NCBI GenBank assembly: GCA_017560225.1
Contig: JAFYOJ010000191.1
Span: 3,455-67,454, forward strand
Reading direction: 5' to 3'
Origin: Clostridia bacterium
GTDB lineage: Bacteria; Bacillota; Clostridia; UBA1212; UBA1255
Length of the DNA: 64,000 nucleotides
Shown here one piece after another: positions 1-55,398 of this stretch. How positions within the stretch are numbered: the stretch's first letter is position 1; each line of letters opens with the position of its first letter. Under the pieces are notes generated by a model, which was given only the letters and a program-made list of their open reading frames with translations, did not search any database and was not told the origin of the DNA. A program made the translations under genes and the position numbers.

Positions 1-1278
1 TGCAACAGCAGAATCCGTAATCAATTCGGAAGCCTTGCGAAGTTGAATATCACGAATCACCGCTTCTGTGCTGGCTGCATACAATGCTTTCACTTCTTCA
101 ACGGGCTTCTTCATATATTCAGCAGCTTCTTGGAATTCCTTATCGATTTCCTCTTGCGTTGCCTCGATCTTCTCTGCTGCAACAATCGCCTCTAATACCA
201 AGTCACGGCGTACGTTAATCTCAGCTTGAGGTCTTACTCTTTCCTTAAATTCTTCTACAGTAGTACCCATGTACTGGCAGTACTTCGCCATATCCATACC
301 GTACATGCTGAGCTGTTGCTCCATACGACGTACTTCCTGCTCCTGAGAAGCTTGAATCATACACTCGGGAATCTCTACCTCTGCATTGGTAATTGCAGTC
401 TTCAATGCTTCCTCATCCATTGCGCGCTTAGCTTCTTCTTCCTTCTTTGCAAGCATCTTTGCCTTCAAATCAGCCTTGTATTCAGCCAAGGTTTCAAATT
501 CACTTACGTCAGATGCAAAAGCATCGTCAATAGCGGGAAGTTCTTCTGCCTTGATTTCGTGTACAGTTACTTTAAACTCAGCAGCTTTACCTGCAAGTTC
601 ACTTGCATGATACTCTTCAGGGAAAGTTACCTTTACAACGGTCTCGCCACCGACATTGATGCCAACCAGTTGCTCTTCAAAACTGGGGATAAACTGACCG
701 GAACCCAGCTTCAAGGAGAAATTCTCACCCTTGCCGCCATCAAAAGGAACACCGTCTACAGAACCTTCAAAATCGATTACAACTGTGTCATCCATAGCTG
801 CAGCACGATCTTCAACAGTAATCACACGTGCATTCTTCTTAGCTTCGTCCTCTACAGCCTTGTCCACGTCAGCATCGGAAACTTCAGCAGCAACCTTTGC
901 TACTTCCAAAGCTTTGTATGCGCCAAGCTTAACTTCAGGCTTGGTGTAAACTTCAACAGTGAAGACAGCCTTCTCAGTGTTAAACTCTTTCACGTCGATT
1001 TTCTGAGGATCAGAAACAACGTCCAACTTTAACTCTTCAATTGCAGCATAATAATCGTGGCCGATTACGTAATCCATTGCATCATTGTACAGAACTTCTT
1101 TGCCGTAAATCTGCTCAACTACCTTGCGAGGAGCCTTTCCGGGTCTGAAACCGTTCACGCGGAAATTCTTTGCGTTCTTCTTGAATGCATACGCCATACC
1201 CTCTTCAATCAACTCAGGGGCAGACTCAATCTCAAGACGAACTAAATTCTTATCAACATTCTCCAACTTTACTTTCAT
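1..1278 (-). CDS. tig: Trigger factor (peptidyl-prolyl isomerase chaperone), 5' part only. The gene runs off the left edge of the window.
   Basis: The ORF is absent from the track because it is open to the window edge. Reverse translation from ATG at 1278 gives MKVKLENVDKNLVRLEIESAPELIEEGMAYAFKKNAKNFRVNGFRPGKAPRKVVEQIYG, a clear trigger-factor N-domain (GFRxGKxP motif). The RBS GGAGGAAG lies 8 nt upstream (1283-1290). Confidence 0.85.
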   Translation of the reverse strand, partial: MKVKLENVDKNLVRLEIESAPELIEEGMAYAFKKNAKNFRVNGFRPGKAPRKVVEQIYGKEVLYNDAMDYVIGHDYYAAIEELKLDVVSDPQKIDVKEFNTEKAVFTVEVYTKPEVKLGAYKALEVAKVAAEVSDADVDKAVEDEAKKNARVITVEDRAAAMDDTVVIDFEGSVDGVPFDGGKGENFSLKLGSGQFIPSFEEQLVGINVGGETVVKVTFPEEYHASELAGKAAEFKVTVHEIKAEELPAIDDAFASDVSEFETLAEYKADLKAKMLAKKEEEAKRAMDEEALKTAITNAEVEIPECMIQASQEQEVRRMEQQLSMYGMDMAKYCQYMGTTVEEFKERVRPQAEINVRRDLVLEAIVAAEKIEATQEEIDKEFQEAAEYMKKPVEEVKALYAASTEAVIRDIQLRKASELITDSAVA

Positions 1279-1331
1279 AATTACTGCTTCCTCCTAACGG
1301 CACCTATTCTAAAAGGCCGTGCTATTTATAC

Positions 1332-1357
1332 AAAAAGCCTGCCACATGGGCAAGCCT
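1332..1357 (-). terminator. Candidate rho-independent terminator downstream of rpmE.
   Basis: On the minus strand the sequence is GGCUUGCC-CAUGU-GGCAGGCU followed by UUUUUGUAUAAAU. It forms an 8-bp stem that includes two G-U pairs. Confidence 0.45.
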
Positions 1358-1426
1358 TGAATGACGATGAGATGCGGGAACAGGCTTATAAGACAAGGGT
1401 CCCACATCCGAAAAACTGTTCCGGGC

Positions 1427-1624
1427 TCACAGACCGTATCTCTTATTGAACTTGTCAACACGTCCGCCGGTATCTACCAACTTCTGCTTTCCTGTGTAGA
1501 ACGGGTGGCACTTCGAACAAATTTCGACAGAAATTTCCTTCTTTGTCGAATAAGTTGTAAAAGTCTCGCCGCAAGCACACTTTGCAGTTGTCTCCTCAAA
1601 ATTCGGATGAATTCCTTCTTTCAT
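1427..1624 (-). CDS. rpmE: 50S ribosomal protein L31, Zn-ribbon type.
   Basis: The 65-aa product reads [22 protein letters not shown]...[13 protein letters not shown], with CxC...CxxC zinc-ribbon motifs. Confidence 0.95.
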
Positions 1625-1734
1625 TCCATGTCACCTTCTTTCACACAAATAAAGCACTGTCACTTTACTTTCATTCCATATCAAGCGCCGCCTGAACATG
1701 CTCATGAATAGCAACTGACAGAACAGCAGAGTGC

Positions 1735-1764
1735 ATTATACCATAGTTTCTTGGTAGATTGCAA
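1735..1764 (-). promoter_or_regulatory. Sigma-A-type promoter for rpmE.
   Basis: The minus strand reads TTGCAA, an 18-nt spacer, then TATAAT preceded by TGg (extended -10). This implies a 5'UTR of roughly 100 nt. Confidence 0.5.
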
Positions 1765-1767
1765 CCC

Positions 1768-3090
1768 TTATTTTCCCCCTTTTTGGAAAATTTTCTTAAC
1801 CGCCAACCCCGTACGCTGAAGCCATCCGGCATTCGGCACTTTCGGTTCCGGCAATTCACCATATTCCGGGGGAAGTTCCCCTGATGCTACACGTTTACGA
1901 AGTTTCCGTTCCACGTAAGTATCATAGAACACCACTTTGACTACCGCTGCCAACACGTCACCGATAATCATGCCCACAAAACCGAACAAAACGCCACCGA
2001 CGCATAAGCCAATCAAGACAAGCAAAGGACTGATACCCATCTGACCGCCCAAAATGTTCGGTGTAATAAACCAGTTGTCAATCATTTGAATAATCAAAAC
2101 GCAGATCAACACGCGCACGCCCATCCAGGGATCCTGCACAAGGCTAATCAAAACCACCGGAATGCCACCAATCCAAGGTCCAATATAGGGAATCAAATTG
2201 GTAAGGCCCAAAATCACCGCAAACAAAATCGCATAATCAACACGTGCAATCAACAATACAATATAAGAAAGAATCAAAATTACAATCGCCTGCAATAATT
2301 TCCCTGCGAAGTACCGTTTGAAAACATTGTCTACTTTTCTTCCTATATCGGTAATTTGATCTGCCGCGTCCCGTTTGAACAAGCCATGAACAATGCGATT
2401 GCCTGCCACTAACACCTTGTCTTTCTCCACAAGCATGTATACGGAAACCAACAACGTCATAAACACATTGAACACACCGGTACCGGTAGCCTTCGCAACA
2501 CGGATCCCCATCGTTGTGAGAAAATCCACATTGAGCCAACCCATAAGCGTGTCTTTAAGAGATGCAATACCATTCACAATTTCGCTTTGCATAGCAGGCG
2601 TCAAATTAAACCGTCCGCCTTCCACAATATCTTTATACAAGGCATTAATCGTGTCAAACATTTTAGGCATCATCTTGGCAAGATCCGTAATAGACTCCAC
2701 CAATTTAGGCACAATGGCGAACAGCAAAACCGCCACAAATGCGATCAAAGTAATATACGCAAGAACGATGCCAATACCGCGCTTCGTCTTGCCCGCTTTC
2801 ATCTTCTTCAAAATGCGCAGATCCAACCAGCAAATATAGGTATTCAAAACATATGCCAGAATAAATCCGGACGTCAAATAACCCAGTAGCGATACCATGT
2901 ATCGGAACGCATCGCCTAAAGAGGCTCGGAATCCTACGAAATCAAAAATAATCTTCGTAGACAAAATCAACAGAATCCCCAAGAGTAGGAACGTCTTAAA
3001 GTTCCACTCAGAGGGCTTTCTGTTGAAAAAAGGTTCTTTCTTCTTTGATTGCTGCGTGTTCTTCGGATCAGGATGTTGCTCCTGGTTCAT
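1768..3090 (-). CDS. AI-2E family transporter (PerM/UPF0118 membrane protein).
   Basis: The protein has multiple transmembrane segments and a C-terminal IGPWIGGIPVVLISL-type motif typical of AI-2E/UPF0118. The start was moved to the ATG at 3090 (MNQEQHPD) because GAGGTG sits 6 nt upstream. Confidence 0.75.
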   Translation of the reverse strand: MNQEQHPDPKNTQQSKKKEPFFNRKPSEWNFKTFLLLGILLILSTKIIFDFVGFRASLGDAFRYMVSLLGYLTSGFILAYVLNTYICWLDLRILKKMKAGKTKRGIGIVLAYITLIAFVAVLLFAIVPKLVESITDLAKMMPKMFDTINALYKDIVEGGRFNLTPAMQSEIVNGIASLKDTLMGWLNVDFLTTMGIRVAKATGTGVFNVFMTLLVSVYMLVEKDKVLVAGNRIVHGLFKRDAADQITDIGRKVDNVFKRYFAGKLLQAIVILILSYIVLLIARVDYAILFAVILGLTNLIPYIGPWIGGIPVVLISLVQDPWMGVRVLICVLIIQMIDNWFITPNILGGQMGISPLLVLIGLCVGGVLFGFVGMIIGDVLAAVVKVVFYDTYVERKLRKRVASGELPPEYGELPEPKVPNAGWLQRTGLAVKKIFQKGGK

Positions 3091-49918: not shown

Positions 49919-50458
49919 ATGCTAGTAAAGTTTAACGTAAAGGATTCCCAGATCCCCGAGAAGACGATGGAACAGATGGAGAAGAAGCTCCAGGCACGGT
50001 TTCACCGTTATTTTGCCGATGAGCCCGAGAACAAGACAACAGTGTTGGTAAAGATTGCCGATTTGAAACACGGTTTCAAGGCAGAGTTGACACTTTCTTA
50101 TCAGGGCTATCTGCTCAGGGCAGAAACCTCCGACGACAAGGCAGCAACGGCTGCTTTAGACAAAGCCATCGACATTTTGGAGCGTCAGTTGGTGAAGTGC
50201 AAGAACAAATTGGCACAGGTACGTCATCAGCCCATTCCGGAGGCAGCAGGCACACCCGCAATCGAGGAAGAGCCCGCCGAGTATCCGGTTGTTCGGGTAA
50301 AAAGGTTAGAAGTCAAACCCATGAATGTCCAAGAAGCTATCTTGAATATGAATATGTTAGGCCACGACTTCTATATGTTTGAGAATGGCGACTCCGGCAA
50401 GATTGCCACCGTTTACAAACGGGCTGACGGCGCTTACGGCTTGATTGAAATTGAATAA
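49919..50458 (+). CDS. hpf: Ribosome hibernation promoting factor, long form (HPF/RaiA).
   Basis: The product starts MLVKFNVKDSQIPEKTMEQMEKKLQARFHRYF (RaiA domain). The C-terminal dimerisation domain reads YPVVRVKRLEVKPMNVQEAILNMNMLGHDFYMFENGDSGK. The RBS is GAGGAGGA. Confidence 0.9.
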   Translation: MLVKFNVKDSQIPEKTMEQMEKKLQARFHRYFADEPENKTTVLVKIADLKHGFKAELTLSYQGYLLRAETSDDKAATAALDKAIDILERQLVKCKNKLAQVRHQPIPEAAGTPAIEEEPAEYPVVRVKRLEVKPMNVQEAILNMNMLGHDFYMFENGDSGKIATVYKRADGAYGLIEIE

Positions 50459-50471
50459 AGAATAAGATGAA

Positions 50472-50498
50472 GAGCCGCCTCGCAAGGGGCGGCTTTTT
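50472..50498 (+). terminator. Rho-independent terminator of hpf.
   Basis: The sequence AGCCGCC-tcgcaagg-GGCGGCT is followed by TTTTTG. Confidence 0.7.
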
Positions 50499-50504
50499 GA
50501 TTAG

Positions 50505-50710
50505 GTCGAAAAAGTACTAAACTCAGTGTTTCACGACCTGCTCCAGGTCGTAAAAAGCACCCAAAGCCATATATACGACCCGTATAATCCGGTAAATATA
50601 GCATTTCAGCGAAATTTAACCAATAGTGCGGGTCGTACATGGACAAAACAGCGTCAATTACGACCTGTCAGAGGTCGTGAAACAGTGAAATAATCAAAAT
50701 TATGACCTCT
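50505..50710. repeat. Nested palindromic element of about 200 nt built from ACGACCTG / CAGGTCGT hairpin units. It may be REP- or MITE-like, or a structured ncRNA.
   Basis: About eight copies of the GGTCG/CGACC core occur. Hairpins are seen at 50529-50553 (ACGACCTG-ctc-CAGGTCGT) and 50658-50682 (ACGACCT-gtcag-AGGTCGT). A long-range stem pairs TACGACCCG at 50573 with CGGGTCGTA at 50628. Outer inverted flanks are GTTTCACGACC and GGTCGTGAAAC. Confidence 0.4.
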
Positions 50711-50719
50711 CCCACTGAA

Positions 50720-50763
50720 AAAATACAAAAAGGGGCGGTTTCTAAAGAAACAACCCCTTTTTT
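50720..50763. terminator. Bidirectional terminator. It serves the minus-strand beta-helix gene.
   Basis: The hairpin GGGGCGGTTTC-taaa-GAAACAACCCC is flanked by A-runs on the 5' side and T-runs on the 3' side. Confidence 0.5.
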
Positions 50764-50790
50764 GATTAGTTTCCAATGGATCCAGCGTCT

Positions 50791-52704
50791 TTACTGCGCT
50801 TGAATTTTGAAGACGCCCGCCTGCGCATCCCAATAGGTTTCGTAACCTTCATTTTGACAAATCAGCTTTGTTTCGTCCCCTTCGGTATACGTATAACCGG
50901 TCACCGGCTTTAAGTTAAAGGCACTAAAGTTCTCACCTTCCGTTACATAGAATTTAAACGCACCGAAAGAAGCTCCAAGATTTGCAGTATTGTGGCCGGT
51001 ACCTAAATCAAAGTACACAATACCACGAATACCCTCTCCACCAATAGTGGGCGTAAGTCCACCTTGAATGAAGATGTTGTCATCAAGCTGACCGCCGGAA
51101 ATATTTACATTAGGATTCCAGCCATAGACACCGGTCCATCTTTCTTCGGTTGCGCTCACATTTCCGTAAATCTTACCACCGCTCATATTAAACTTCGTAT
51201 AGTTGGAAATACGGAAAGCGCCACAAGATTCAGTTGCTACATTTTCAAAAATCTCCACATTTCCACCAACATTGACGGTAGAACCATCGCCCGTATAGAG
51301 TACACCACCTACCGATGCACTATTTCCATAAATCTTACCGCCGTTGAAATTATAGACGGAAGCACCATATCCCCAAATCACACCGCCGGCAGTAGTTGCT
51401 TTGTTATAACTGATTTCACCACCATTTACAGTGAAATTACAGCTACTTACCATACGAATAGCACCTGCGCTGGCCGTAGAAGAATTATAACGAATTGATC
51501 CCGCATTGAGCGTAATATGTCCACCGCCATAAATAGCTCCGCTACCGGAATTATTATTGATAATGTGGCCACCCTCTAACGTGAGCGTAGCACCGATTCG
51601 TGTACCCATATTTACCGCATGGGCACCGTCGTTATTTTGAAGCACTGCCCCTTCGCCAAGAATCAAATGGCTGTTGGCATTCAAAACAACAAGTGCGCCG
51701 GTTGCAGTAAGGCCGGTATTCTCCATGCCACGATTTAAAACAGCATCAATCTCACCACTCCAAATAGCACCACCATCGACCACGATGTTCTCCAAGGTTA
51801 AGGTCGCGCCGGCTTCAACGCTAAAGACTTCCGCAAGATGGGCGGTTGTCGTAGTTCTGGCTGAAAAAGTAGTGGCAGGCGTTTGTCGCATAAGCGCGAA
51901 ACCCGCACCGTCAATATTGACATCGTAATCAACTACAATCTTTTCTTCCACAGGGAAGTTCGCCGTGAAAAGAATATTCTCTTCTTGGTTTTGAAGTGCC
52001 GCCTTTAACTCACGGGCATTGGCAACAGGCGCAAAATTAAGCGGTGCATTGACGTCATATTGATCATCAAATCCATCACTTTCTCCGGTAGCTTGGGACG
52101 CCACAATTTTAATATCAAAAATACCACCCAAAGAAAGACCTTGGTATTCATTTCCCGCAGATTCACGCATCTTCAGCGCAATACCCAGATACGCTTTCTC
52201 GCCGGCCTTCAGCGTACCCTTGGTGGTTTCTTCAATGCTATTGATAAATTCTGCTAACGTTCCAACCTGCGTATACCCGTTCAGTGTACGATCCGCAGGA
52301 TATGTAACCGTAGCATCATCTTCAAGAACACCATAGTTCAGCACATACACATCAATTGCATCGGCAAGGATAGACAACGCATCTTCAGACACAAACTTTG
52401 CCATCCACTTTAAATTCAAATCGCCCTCGTTCTCAATGCGAAGAATCTTCACATCTGTATATCCGGGTTCCCATTTATCGTTGTTAAAGAGCGCATTCTT
52501 ATCTTGCTTCAAAGAAGACCATGAACCGTCTTTGTTCAAAAGCTCCAGATCCACAACAAAATTACCCGATTCAATCTTATTGCCGGAAGACGTCACCGTA
52601 TCCGTAAACCAAGCAAATGTATTTCCCACAAGGAGAAGAATACACATGAGAATCGCGAATAAACTTAAATACAGTGCTTGCTTGTTTGTTGCTCGTTTCG
52701 TCAT
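50791..52704 (-). CDS. Secreted protein with a SipW-cognate (TasA/camelysin-class) signal peptide and N-domain fused to a long right-handed parallel beta-helix.
   Basis: The N-terminus MTKRATNKQALYLSLFAILMCILLLVGNTFAWFTDTVTSSGNKIESGNFVVDLEL matches the SipW-cognate signal (A[WY]FTD...N.F..G..[VL]DL). Residues about 40-220 resemble the TasA/camelysin beta-sandwich. Residues about 260-560 carry G/N/S/T-rich about 22-residue beta-helix coils (GGAIWSG, GGHIINNNSGSGAIYGGGHITL, GGEISYNKATTAGGVIWGYG...). The RBS is TAGGAGG. Confidence 0.7.
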   Translation of the reverse strand: MTKRATNKQALYLSLFAILMCILLLVGNTFAWFTDTVTSSGNKIESGNFVVDLELLNKDGSWSSLKQDKNALFNNDKWEPGYTDVKILRIENEGDLNLKWMAKFVSEDALSILADAIDVYVLNYGVLEDDATVTYPADRTLNGYTQVGTLAEFINSIEETTKGTLKAGEKAYLGIALKMRESAGNEYQGLSLGGIFDIKIVASQATGESDGFDDQYDVNAPLNFAPVANARELKAALQNQEENILFTANFPVEEKIVVDYDVNIDGAGFALMRQTPATTFSARTTTTAHLAEVFSVEAGATLTLENIVVDGGAIWSGEIDAVLNRGMENTGLTATGALVVLNANSHLILGEGAVLQNNDGAHAVNMGTRIGATLTLEGGHIINNNSGSGAIYGGGHITLNAGSIRYNSSTASAGAIRMVSSCNFTVNGGEISYNKATTAGGVIWGYGASVYNFNGGKIYGNSASVGGVLYTGDGSTVNVGGNVEIFENVATESCGAFRISNYTKFNMSGGKIYGNVSATEERWTGVYGWNPNVNISGGQLDDNIFIQGGLTPTIGGEGIRGIVYFDLGTGHNTANLGASFGAFKFYVTEGENFSAFNLKPVTGYTYTEGDETKLICQNEGYETYWDAQAGVFKIQAQ

Positions 52705-52730
52705 TTTATAACCTCCTATAAATAAACCCT

Positions 52731-53528
52731 TTATAATTTCTTACGAATATAAACAATTTCCTTTTGCGTTTTGTGTTGTGGTTTCTTAGAAACTTTGACA
52801 CGATGGCACTTCTTATTATATAAAACAATTTTTGTTTTAGAACGGTTGGGCATCAAGACTTGATTCTGCCGATTTAACGCCAATTGTTTCTCTTCAAGCT
52901 GCGCCTTTAAGATACGCAATTCCTCCACCAATTGGTCATTGGAAGCCCGCTCCGCCTCCATTTCTTTCAAGGCTTCTTTCTTGGATTTGCGAAGAACCAC
53001 AAAGAAATTGATAATTTCATAGAGTACAACCAGCATTATGGGGGTGAAAATACAAAGGAAAAATCCTTGGGTCGTTTTTAAGAAATTAAAAACCGCACCA
53101 AGGCCTGCAATATGAAACTCATATTTTCCAAGAATATCTTGATATAACACAATTCCCGCATCGTCTGCATTCGTGGATGTACCATAGGTGATAAAACCTT
53201 TATTTCCGTTTGCATCCGTAGCTAAACTTCTAATTTTATGGGTCAGTGTTTCATCGAGGCTATTCTCATCCTTTGAAATAAAGGTAATAATATCTCCCGG
53301 TTTTAACGTATCTAAATCAACCGCCTTCACAAAGATCAGGTCACCTGATTTAAAATCTGTTTTCTCCATAGAGTCAGAATTAACAATAAAAATTTTATAT
53401 CCAAAAAGAGTACGATCGTTACGATTTAAGGTTGTCAAAGAAAATACGGTAAAAACAGTCATGGTAACCGCACCAAGTACAACAAGCCAGACCAATATCG
53501 TTTTAACAATATCAAAGGCTTTTCTCAC
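52731..53528 (-). CDS. sipW: Signal peptidase I, ER/archaeal type (SipW-like, S26B) with a C-terminal coiled-coil plus basic extension.
   Basis: The sequence IVNSDSMEKTDFKSGDLIFVKAV contains the SxSMxP S26B motif. A conserved His is present (LTHKIRSL) and there is a C-terminal transmembrane segment. An extra tail of about 100 aa follows (KKEALKEMEAERASNDQLVEELRILKAQLEEKQLALNRQ..KKCHRVKVSKKPQHKTQKEIVYIRKKL). The start was chosen at GTG 53528 after GAGGA. TTG 53573 is the alternative. Confidence 0.75.
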   Translation of the reverse strand: MRKAFDIVKTILVWLVVLGAVTMTVFTVFSLTTLNRNDRTLFGYKIFIVNSDSMEKTDFKSGDLIFVKAVDLDTLKPGDIITFISKDENSLDETLTHKIRSLATDANGNKGFITYGTSTNADDAGIVLYQDILGKYEFHIAGLGAVFNFLKTTQGFFLCIFTPIMLVVLYEIINFFVVLRKSKKEALKEMEAERASNDQLVEELRILKAQLEEKQLALNRQNQVLMPNRSKTKIVLYNKKCHRVKVSKKPQHKTQKEIVYIRKKL

Positions 53529-53637
53529 AACAACTCGTCCTCGTTTCCTTAAAAATTTCTGTCCAAACAACAAAAAACCAATCTCGAATTATTATATCAT
53601 AACTCTCGATTGGTTTCAATAAACTATCAAAATTCCC

Positions 53638-55398
53638 TTACTTATGTTCCAGCTTATACCGCTTAATCTTGTGGGTGGTGGTCTTCTCAAACTCTTCCAT
53701 TCGAAGCTCCATCCGCTTGATACGCTTGTAGGTCACCAGATCCTTATTGATCTTCTTAACCTCATCCCACAGCATCTTCTCCATCACTTCCGTAGAAGGA
53801 TCTTCGATGCCCGCCTCTTTGAAGCCATCTAAATTCGGCACGATGGTCACGCAAATATCCGTGTCGGCTTCCATACCGCCGTCATCGCCCCAAACAACGC
53901 TTTCCTTAACAAAAGGCACTTTGTTGATCAGCGCTTCCAACTCCTCGGGGAAGATGTTCTTTCCCGTCTTGGTTACGATCAAATTCTTAATACGACCTGT
54001 GATGTGGAAGCAACCGTTTTTATCCATATAAGCCTGGTCGCCGGTCTTAAACCAACCGTCTTCCGTGAATACTGCCTTGGTCGCCTCTTCATTCTCATAG
54101 TAGCCAAGCATAATATTGTCGCCCTTCGCCAGAATCTCGCCGCGGCCCTCTTCATCCATATCGCCCAACTTAATCTCAATACCGGGCATTGCAGGACCAA
54201 CGGAAGCGTAATCATTCTTAATTTCCTGATTTACGCAAAGAATGGGAGAACACTCCGTAAGGCCGTACCCTTGGCGAATCTTAATACCCATCTTGGCAAG
54301 GTCTTTAGAAACCTTAGGGCTCATAGCAGCCGCGCCGGCAATCAGCAAACGGAGCTTACCGCCCAATGTCTGGTGAATCTGGGGGAACAATTTCTTGCCC
54401 GCATCAATGCCGAAGAAATTCAGCACACCGGAAAGGCCCAACAAGAATTTAAAACCAATATATTTCACCTTGCTGGACTTGGCACTCTTAATAATCTTGG
54501 CATGCACATTCTCAATAATCAAAGGCACCAACATAATAATGGTAGGCTGATATTCCTGAATGTTCTTACCGATATAACGAAGACCTTCACAGAAGGACAC
54601 ACAAGCGCCCATACGAACGGAAATCAAGAATGTACAGGAGCATTCGAAGGTGTGGTGGTTGGGTAAAATGGAAAGCATAGAATCTTCCGGGCCATGATCT
54701 AAGCACTGCACCACGCTGTTGATGTTGCTGCAAATATTCTTTTGAGAAAGCATAACGCCCTTCGCAACACCGGTAGTACCGGAGGTAAAGATCAACACCG
54801 CCAACTGCTCAGGATCAATCACAACGTTATCAAAACGCGTGTCGCCGCCCGCTAACAATTCCTTACCGCGAGCCAGCAAAGCACTCAAAGCCGTATGCTT
54901 CCGCACTTCCAATTCTTCACCCAAATCGTCCATACAAACACGATTGGTAATCTCCGGAATATCATCCAGAACTTGACTCAATCCCTTTCCGTAAATCTTA
55001 TCAGAATAAAGAATACCGGTAGAATGAGAAGCTGTCAGTACCATCTTCACTTCGTCTGCCTTAAGCTCTTTATCGACAGGCACAACAACGTGGCCGGCAC
55101 AAGTTACAGCCAAATAGGAAAGACACCATTCATAACGGCTGTCACCCATCACAGCAATGTGGGTGCGCTCCGGATACAAATCCATCAAGGCTGTGCCCAG
55201 CATACGAATTTCTTCCCAAAACTCATTGAAAGAAACGTGACGAAGGGTGTCGCCCTCTTTCCCCTTAATCTTCACTAAATAAGCATCCTTGGGACCTACG
55301 TGCTTCACGGTGGTCTGCACCAAATCTCTGAAATCTACCAACGGGGGCGCCTTTAAGTCAAACGCTTCCCAAACTTGTTCTTGTACTTTCTTTGCCAA
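53638..55398 (-). CDS. fadD: Long-chain fatty acid-CoA ligase (AMP-binding enzyme family).
   Basis: The AMP-binding motif IFTSGTTGVAKGVM and the GYGLTE and GDQAYMDKNG blocks are present. The start is TTG after GAGAGGA. Confidence 0.85.
   Translation of the reverse strand: MAKKVQEQVWEAFDLKAPPLVDFRDLVQTTVKHVGPKDAYLVKIKGKEGDTLRHVSFNEFWEEIRMLGTALMDLYPERTHIAVMGDSRYEWCLSYLAVTCAGHVVVPVDKELKADEVKMVLTASHSTGILYSDKIYGKGLSQVLDDIPEITNRVCMDDLGEELEVRKHTALSALLARGKELLAGGDTRFDNVVIDPEQLAVLIFTSGTTGVAKGVMLSQKNICSNINSVVQCLDHGPEDSMLSILPNHHTFECSCTFLISVRMGACVSFCEGLRYIGKNIQEYQPTIIMLVPLIIENVHAKIIKSAKSSKVKYIGFKFLLGLSGVLNFFGIDAGKKLFPQIHQTLGGKLRLLIAGAAAMSPKVSKDLAKMGIKIRQGYGLTECSPILCVNQEIKNDYASVGPAMPGIEIKLGDMDEEGRGEILAKGDNIMLGYYENEEATKAVFTEDGWFKTGDQAYMDKNGCFHITGRIKNLIVTKTGKNIFPEELEALINKVPFVKESVVWGDDGGMEADTDICVTIVPNLDGFKEAGIEDPSTEVMEKMLWDEVKKINKDLVTYKRIKRMELRMEEFEKTTTHKIKRYKLEHK

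Follow-up and report, generated by a model that had tools for sequence, protein, structure and literature searches.

We have analysed a nested palindromic element found in a metagenome-derived contig (JAFYOJ010000191.1 of assembly GCA_017560225.1) of an uncultured Clostridia (Oscillospiraceae-like) bacterium, which is represented by metagenomes only. The stretch of 64,000 nucleotides from this contig, which is called the window hereafter, contains the element at 50495-50709, between the convergent genes hpf and a gene for a secreted beta-helix protein. The reading that we prefer, at a probability of about 0.45, is that the element is a solitary, lineage-specific and non-autonomous piece of mobile or recombinogenic DNA, i.e., a relic similar to a miniature inverted-repeat transposable element (MITE) or to a REPIN (a doublet of repetitive extragenic palindromes, REPs), located directly 3' of the hpf terminator, at a hot spot of insertion. 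The structure of the element and the comparison of the same spacer among relatives carry this reading, and the search for further copies weighs against it.

The element is about 205 nt long overall and 166 nt from arm to arm, and it is dyad-symmetric with its centre at 50605.5. It is composed of eight GGTCGTRAA-like motifs in alternating orientation, with GGTC/GACC cores centred at 50505.5, 50536.5, 50547.5, 50578.5, 50632.5, 50663.5, 50674.5 and 50705.5; consecutive cores are thus 31-11-31-54-31-11-31 nt apart, with each pair exactly mirrored about 50605.5. Seven of the eight copies are GGTCGTA. An earlier reading made from the sequence alone (the sequence-only reading) had counted about eight GGTCG cores in alternating orientation, and the alternation proved to be strict, with seven exact GGTCG/CGACC cores and one degenerate core (TGACC at 50703). 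That reading had also placed the element at 50505-50710; the location was right, but the extent was not, since the element reaches slightly further (about 50495-50709).

The two near-identical hairpins that had been described are present, and both are 19 nt in length: ACGACCTG-ctc-CAGGTCGT at 50533-50551 on the left and ACGACCTG-tcag-AGGTCGT at 50660-50678 on the right. They form the cores of two 31-nt inverted arms (50523-50553 and 50658-50688), which are 84% complementary, and the local hairpin energy of the left arm is -11.6 / -15.6 kcal/mol. The inverted outer flanks, GTTTCACGACC (50528-50538) and GGTCGTGAAAC (50673-50683), were found as previously reported, and so was the 9-bp long-range stem, in which TACGACCCG (50574-50582, plus strand) pairs with CGGGTCGTA (50628-50636, minus strand). 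This stem encloses an AT-rich apex (50583-50627), which has TATAAT at 50583-50588 on the plus strand and a weak promoter-like site on the minus strand. The outermost left motif copy, AGGTCGAAAAA (50503-50513, plus strand), is a direct repeat of 50545-50555 with a 42-nt spacing, and its mirror on the right is the degenerate copy ATGACCTC (50702-50709, plus strand). When the hairpins are read as duplex DNA instead, each becomes an 11-7-11 dyad site, GTTTCACGACC-TGCTCCA-GGTCGTAAAAA on the left and AATTACGACC-TGTCAGA-GGTCGTGAAAC on the right, and the 29-bp dyad site can be written as GTTTCACGACCTGCTCCAGGTCGTAAAAA. There is no credible open reading frame (ORF) inside the element.

Conservation between the two halves is modular, i.e., motif blocks are kept and spacers are not: the motif blocks are complementary at 41 of 51 positions versus 8 of 30 for the spacers, with identical spacing on both sides, and one 17-nt spacer pair of exactly equal lengths matches at only 2 of 17 positions. 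As far as the sequence can tell, this pattern has the look of protein-binding sites kept at fixed distances, which may be either the ends of a transposable element or a present-day array. The whole architecture, with inverted arms, subterminal motifs, an AT-rich centre and an extragenic position, is typical of miniature inverted-repeat elements and supports our reading.

This ordering is beyond chance. Of the 54 GGTCG/CGACC pentamers in the window, seven are packed into 221 nt, against an expectation of 0.16 (Poisson P about 5e-10), and the element contains five of the six ACGACCYG sites and seven of the 20 GGTCGTRAA matches (one mismatch or less) of the window. Gapless dyad complementarity about 50605.5 is 63/111, compared with 27.5 +/- 4.7 for other centres in the window and 49 for the runner-up, and the dyad symmetry is thus unique within 64 kb. 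The predicted RNA fold has an energy of -78.9 kcal/mol on the plus strand (z -9.8 versus shuffled sequences) and -82.9 kcal/mol on the minus strand (z -7.4), and the fold of single-stranded DNA gives z -7.9. A search of the window for inverted repeats (20 nt or longer, within 250 nt) gave only four, two belonging to the element and two to the nearby terminators, which agrees with the earlier statement that no other such element exists in the 64 kb. L139 and L140, two independent metagenome assemblies from ENA that represent the same species, are 99.8-99.9% identical to the window overall and too similar to serve as a conservation test; they match the window at 100% over the entire intergenic region, and both carry this region in the same orientation as the window. 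Since these assemblies carry the region without any difference, the element is not an assembly artefact.

Comparison with relatives has shown that the element belongs to a larger lineage-specific segment. In the closest relatives, hpf is followed directly by a convergent AMP-binding gene: the gap from the hpf terminator to this gene is 27 nt in L127 and L128, of which the HPF protein is 93% identical to that of the window, and about 45 nt in L129 (84%). Local alignment places the breakpoints at 50498 and 53637, and the 3,138-nt segment between them (50499-53636) is regarded as lineage-specific because hpf abuts the AMP-binding gene in these close relatives. The hpf terminator is the last sequence held in common, since the local alignment to L127 stops at 50498, and the element lies at the outermost margin of the segment. 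Absence of the element from the orthologous site of close relatives is as expected of inserted DNA.

In other relatives the same spacer has received different DNA. An unrelated insertion of about 280 nt is present between hpf and the AMP-binding gene in L147 (HPF 92%; Logan SRR24653631, 1306-1600), having inverted ends of 20-22 nt (GTGGGAGGGGCG / CGCCCC..CCCAC), several TTCACTA/TAGTGAA inverted pairs and its own terminator. In L130 (HPF 80%; GCA_965350485.1, CBDSGM010000092.1, 6565-7394), about 770 nt lies between 58-nt direct repeats that are 83% identical and each include the 42-nt hairpin of the hpf terminator. Within this insert are three 72-nt units arranged in tandem, each a nested palindrome (GGGATAAC...GGGATAAATTATCCC...GTATCCC), and a fragment from the C-terminal end of a DDE_Tnp_1_6 transposase (PF13751, E 1e-11). 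Hairpin-targeted insertion therefore does occur at the hpf locus in this clade. In L148 (HPF 84%), the neighbour gene is altogether different. The three structured insertions of the window, L147 and L130 are mutually non-alignable; for the window element and the L147 insertion, compared in both orientations, no colinear homology was found but only short words (CGAAAAAGTA, GACCCGCA.TA and GTGGGAG). The spacer 3' of hpf thus behaves as an insertion hot spot in the clade, and the presence of three different nested-palindrome insertions at one spacer may reflect either terminator-targeted insertion or something more organised. The palindrome is not an integral part of the adjacent operon, which consists of the beta-helix gene and a gene for a SipW-type signal peptidase, because homologous cassettes (L141-L146) are located in other genomic places and have no such palindrome downstream.

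On the mobile-relic reading, the 31-nt arms and the inner and outer GGTCGTRAA copies would be former binding sites of a transposase or recombinase not encoded nearby, and the fixed mirror spacing would reflect the geometry of that protein-DNA complex. The present activity of the element is probably passive, in that it would be crossed only by read-through from hpf or from the sipW/beta-helix operon; the read-through RNA of either strand could form a hairpin of about -80 kcal/mol, which would serve as a second barrier or as a processing site between the convergent units.

Several results weigh against this reading. The empty site of the relatives lacks the whole 3,138-nt segment and not the element alone, and therefore independent mobility of the element is not demonstrated. 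No target-site duplication was found at any plausible boundary, including CTCAG / GTGAA at a TG...CA boundary, AAAC / AATA at the arm ends, and the outer motif boundaries; an 11-nt repeat, TTTTTGATTAG (50494 / 50759), flanks the element together with the next terminator, with no adjoining inverted ends. Among the window ORFs scanned with Pfam (0-56 kb), there is no transposase, RAYT, Y1_Tnp, integrase, invertase or ParB, and the scanned ORFs are ordinary chromosomal genes, e.g., mreBCD, PBP, ABC transporters and feoB. No second copy is present in the window, which is also the part of the source genome covered by the copy search, nor in 146 fetched loci (1.35 Mb in total), nor in PLSDB plasmids or INPHARED phages searched by BLASTN in distant mode with 50499-50770 as a query. 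Six-frame translation of the element, a search aimed at spurious ORF calls on other copies, gave no match among 5.8 billion predicted proteins. The exact 20-base arm pattern GTTTCACGACCTNNNNCAGGTCGT gave chance matches only, all of which lie inside high-GC coding sequence, in 185,579 species genomes (a set without the source species) and in JGI metagenomes.

Other pattern searches gave similar results. Patterns of 18 and 20 bases matched only high-GC coding sequence in viral, genome and metagenome collections, and a loose 15-base pattern in viral contigs gave chance matches among those listed. A full-text literature search for the arm and hairpin sequences returned primers only. A widespread family with conserved ends is excluded by these searches, and a family confined to the species, with some tens of copies at most, is compatible with the 64-kb coverage of the source genome. 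The sequence-only reading had called the element REP- or MITE-like: its architecture, extragenic site and absence from the orthologous site of close relatives fit this, but repetition was not found in the collections searched, nor a target-site duplication at its boundaries, nor a transposase among the window ORFs scanned, and the lack of copies elsewhere in the searches and of conservation in relatives both lean toward refuting it.

Among the alternatives, the best surviving is a live array on double-stranded DNA, in which the two 11-7-11 dyad sites, 127 bp apart, and four single sites would be held in a looped or wrapped complex. This is unlikely, though several features favour it: the eight copies have exactly mirrored spacing, all near whole helical turns, the motif blocks are conserved when the 17-nt spacers are not, the dyad sites are shaped like typical dimer or core-type sites, and the element borders directly on the end of the lineage-specific segment. 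Candidates for the predicted binding are a recombinase, a ParB-like protein and a dimeric protein of the helix-turn-helix type, and the array could serve as an operator or insulator, act in the manner of a centromere, or be the site of a recombination by which the adjacent cassette was acquired. However, neither the cassette nor any gene within 50 kb encodes a candidate binding protein, the element has a terminator on each side and is not upstream of any gene, and nothing comparable is conserved in relatives. The helical phasing counts for little, as no more than two of the spacings are independent. Whichever way the two dyad sites are aligned, their 7-nt spacers do not match (TGCTCCA versus TGTCAGA / TCTGACA), which argues against exchange between these sites by a tyrosine recombinase.

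One lead toward a binding array comes from the outer 8-mers TGTTTCAC and GTGAAACA, which correspond to the two halves of what we take to be the consensus of chromosomal parS, the ParB/Spo0J site (TGTTTCACGTGAAACA, with the 16-bp contiguous palindrome TGTTNCACGTGAAACA). These perfect half-sites are at 50527-50534 and 50677-50684, 142 bp apart, the window contains only two TGTTTCAC, and deletion of 50535-50676 would recreate a perfect parS under this presumed consensus. On the other hand, the window has no full parS-like site, i.e., no contiguous 16-bp site with two or fewer mismatches. The resemblance is a hint only, given that many famous palindromes can be recognised post hoc. It is quite improbable that the element is a functional, helically phased array of eight sites for a novel DNA-binding protein, such as a recombination or centromere-like site built on ParB-type half-sites, or a perfect parS (TGTTTCAC|GTGAAACA) split centrally by a 142-bp palindromic insertion; in that case, it may join a class of fast-diversifying nested palindromes 3' of hpf, with GGTCGTA here, GGGATAA in L130 and TAGTGAA in L147.

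It is also rather improbable that the element is a by-product of illegitimate recombination in the spacer, in which a 42-nt tandem duplication was followed by an inverted duplication and neither function nor mobility is involved. Each half does show a 42-nt direct period (AGGTCGAAAAA at 50503 and AGGTCGTAAAA at 50545), and the dyad is exact with no net indels. Consistent with such a scar, TTTTGATTAG occurs at 50495 (plus strand), 50690 (minus strand, one mismatch) and 50760 (plus strand), and TTTTGATAG at 53617 (minus strand), including the junctions of the segment, and this 3.1-kb segment is where all the long inverted repeats of the window are gathered. A plain inverted duplication, however, should decay evenly, but the motif blocks are about 80% complementary and one spacer matches at 2/17; with this modular conservation, the element does not look like an evenly decaying inverted duplication. 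Two rounds of duplication would hardly yield eight motif copies unless selection or a modular origin were involved, and Tandem Repeats Finder detected no repeat, including no 42-nt periodicity.

A structured small RNA had been offered in the sequence-only reading as a second possibility; such a gene, with its own internal promoter and ended by one of the flanking, apparently bidirectional terminators, we consider very unlikely. The fold is very stable on both strands, with slightly more pairs on the minus strand (11 of them G-U), each of the flanking terminators has T-runs on both of its sides, and there are a weak extended -10 site on the minus strand (TTGGTT-17-TGcTATATT, with the -10 box at 50600-50595) and TATAAT on the plus strand. 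But the promoter-like sites amount to 4 versus 2.6 expected, none of them a strong or convincing sigma-70 promoter, the plus-strand TATAAT has no -35 box, and the local hairpins have no U-tails. The similar stability of the two strands fits a palindrome at the DNA level and gives no strand-specific RNA signal. The element occurs in no relative, and hence covariation gives no support. The search of Rfam that had been proposed yielded no family match over the element at E <= 10 and none at gathering score window-wide, the best hits over the element being miRNA models (E 0.9-2), far below the gathering score. There is no tRNA or tmRNA.

The weakest alternative, and a most improbable one, is an inverton, in which the 104-bp segment enclosed by the 31-nt arms would be flipped by a site-specific recombinase encoded at a distance. 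In its favour, arms of the right size flank a short segment with -10-like hexamers on both strands, each arm resembles a recombinase core site in being a dyad with a 7-nt spacer, and a secreted protein of the surface type is a product of the neighbouring operon. Against it, all three independent assemblies (window, L139 and L140) show one and the same orientation, the arm spacers are non-identical in either orientation, the segment lies downstream of both genes and is fenced by terminators so that flipping would control no gene, and no recombinase is encoded in the window ORFs scanned. In the RecV-dependent switches of C. difficile (cwpV, flgB and cmr), the recombinase need not be encoded nearby, and the switches lie upstream of the controlled gene. 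The element shares with them the general layout, in which imperfect inverted repeats of 20-30 bp enclose a segment of about 100-200 bp, and it is unlike them in its position downstream of both neighbours, its single orientation in the three assemblies and its mismatched arm spacers.

Other known palindromic sites and elements were considered and rejected. The core sites do not fit RYYYAAC / GTTRRRY, which we take to be the consensus of integron attC, and seven of the eight copies are GGTCGTA and not TGTCGAA, which we take to be the Spo0A box. For a type I toxin-antitoxin system there is no hydrophobic small ORF, and for a single-strand origin of rolling-circle replication there is no plasmid match. 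On sequence grounds, with consensuses as we presume them, dif/Xer sites, protelomerase targets, the CtsR box, sites of the Rex/Crp type, CRISPR and retrons were rejected as well.

As for the locus, hpf (HPF/YfiA family; 49919-50458, plus strand) and the beta-helix gene (50791-52704, minus strand) converge, and each has its own terminator, as had been noted. The stop-to-stop spacer of these two genes is 332 nt, and the element is located between the two terminators. The intrinsic terminator of hpf, read from the sequence as GAGCCGCC-tcgcaag-GGCGGCT followed by a T-run, is at 50470-50498 on the plus strand, and the same hairpin is carried by L127 and L147. In the relatives without the cassette, the hpf terminator is used bidirectionally. 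The terminator of the beta-helix gene (50722-50767, minus strand) has 22-nt arms with T-runs on both sides and looks bidirectional. AAGGGGCGGyTT (50484 / 50730) and TTTTTGATTAG are common to this terminator and the flank of the hpf terminator. A word, TTTTGATTAG / TTTTGATAG, is found four times in alternating orientation: at the left junction of the segment (50494-50504), in the right flank of the palindrome (50690-50699), just past the next terminator (50759-50769), and 11 nt from the right junction (53617-53625). The recurrence of this word and the AAGGGGCGGyTT repeats suggest a history of duplication.

The segment 50499-53636 contains the palindromic element, the terminator, the beta-helix gene, the SipW-type signal peptidase gene (52731-53573, minus strand), and a 42-nt palindrome or terminator; the window copy of the AMP-binding gene, which is convergent with hpf in relatives, follows at 53638-55398. 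The beta-helix protein has 637 amino acids, a SipW-dependent signal peptide (TIGR04088) and a weak camelysin/TasA-like match. The SipW-type peptidase has a long extra C-terminal region outside signal-peptidase models, which consists of a predicted coiled coil and, after it, a tail that is very basic (KKCHRVKVSKKPQHKTQKEIVYIRKKL). The 42-nt palindrome (AAACCAATCTCGAATTATTAT / ATCATAACTCTCGATTGGTTT, 53575-53616) lies between the AMP-binding gene and sipW and is probably the new terminator of the AMP-binding gene, and its TATAAT-like loop faces the sipW operon. The GC content across the sipW-like gene (52001-54000) is 0.40 versus 0.47 for the whole window, and this low value is consistent with a foreign origin of the cassette.

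Concerning the homologous cassettes, L146 (Logan SRR27608103, 1-3007) is a contig with only a sipW-like gene and a beta-helix gene, the latter being 70% identical to that of the window, and the first and last 27 nt of this contig are identical, indicating a circular path or a tandem array. A terminator hairpin, GGCGCACTyCGTAAGGAAGTGCGCCTC, is directly but imperfectly repeated on the two sides of the L145 cassette (1-3046; 71% identical). The cassettes of L145 and L146 may be duplicated or mobile.

If the element is an orphan relic similar to MITEs or REPINs, it matters little in itself, but it points to the hpf terminator as a place where insertions recur in an uncultured lineage, and it helps to date the acquisition of a sipW/TasA-like secreted-protein cassette. 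If it is a working binding site, or belongs to a locus-specific palindrome family with interchangeable motifs, it would be of greater importance and would point to a system for recombination or DNA organisation, so far undescribed, in Clostridia of the gut and the environment.

Comparison with known systems places the element near two kinds of mobile palindromic DNA. REPINs and BIMEs of Pseudomonas and enterobacteria are REP doublets mobilised by RAYT transposases, and REPINs are present in tens to hundreds per genome beside a single RAYT gene (PMC3116915, PMC3337134). The element is like a REPIN in that it is an inverted doublet of short imperfect palindromes, folds as a whole at about -80 kcal/mol, is extragenic between convergent genes and has no target-site duplication, and like BIME arrays in that motif copies alternate in orientation. 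It is unlike REPINs in having one copy in 64 kb and none in the collections searched, no RAYT in the window, a longer spacer (104 nt), and extra inner and outer motif copies; furthermore, no GTAG-type tetranucleotide is present 5' of the hairpins, where the sequences are GTGTTTC and TCAATT.

Bacterial MITEs, such as Correia elements of Neisseria, ERIC/IRU, RUP and bcr1, are 100-300 nt in length and have terminal inverted repeats of 20-30 nt. The element resembles them in size, inverted ends, AT-rich interior, intergenic location, strong hairpin if transcribed, and presence or absence among relatives, and it falls within the general definition of MITEs (50-500 bp, terminal inverted repeats and non-coding). 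It differs from them in the lack of a target-site duplication, in that no other copies or parent insertion sequence with the same ends were found in the searches, and in that the empty site of relatives differs by the whole 3.1-kb segment. Among insertion sequences targeting palindromes are IS1182-type DDE_Tnp_1_6 elements, and IS1397 and ISKpn1 insert into REP palindromes. The L130 locus, where 58-nt direct repeats of the hpf terminator hairpin enclose a DDE_Tnp_1_6 fragment, is like these; the window element, unlike them, encodes no transposase and has no alignable sequence with the L130 insertion. The element is thus a probable solitary member of the REPIN/MITE kind, standing apart from any named family.

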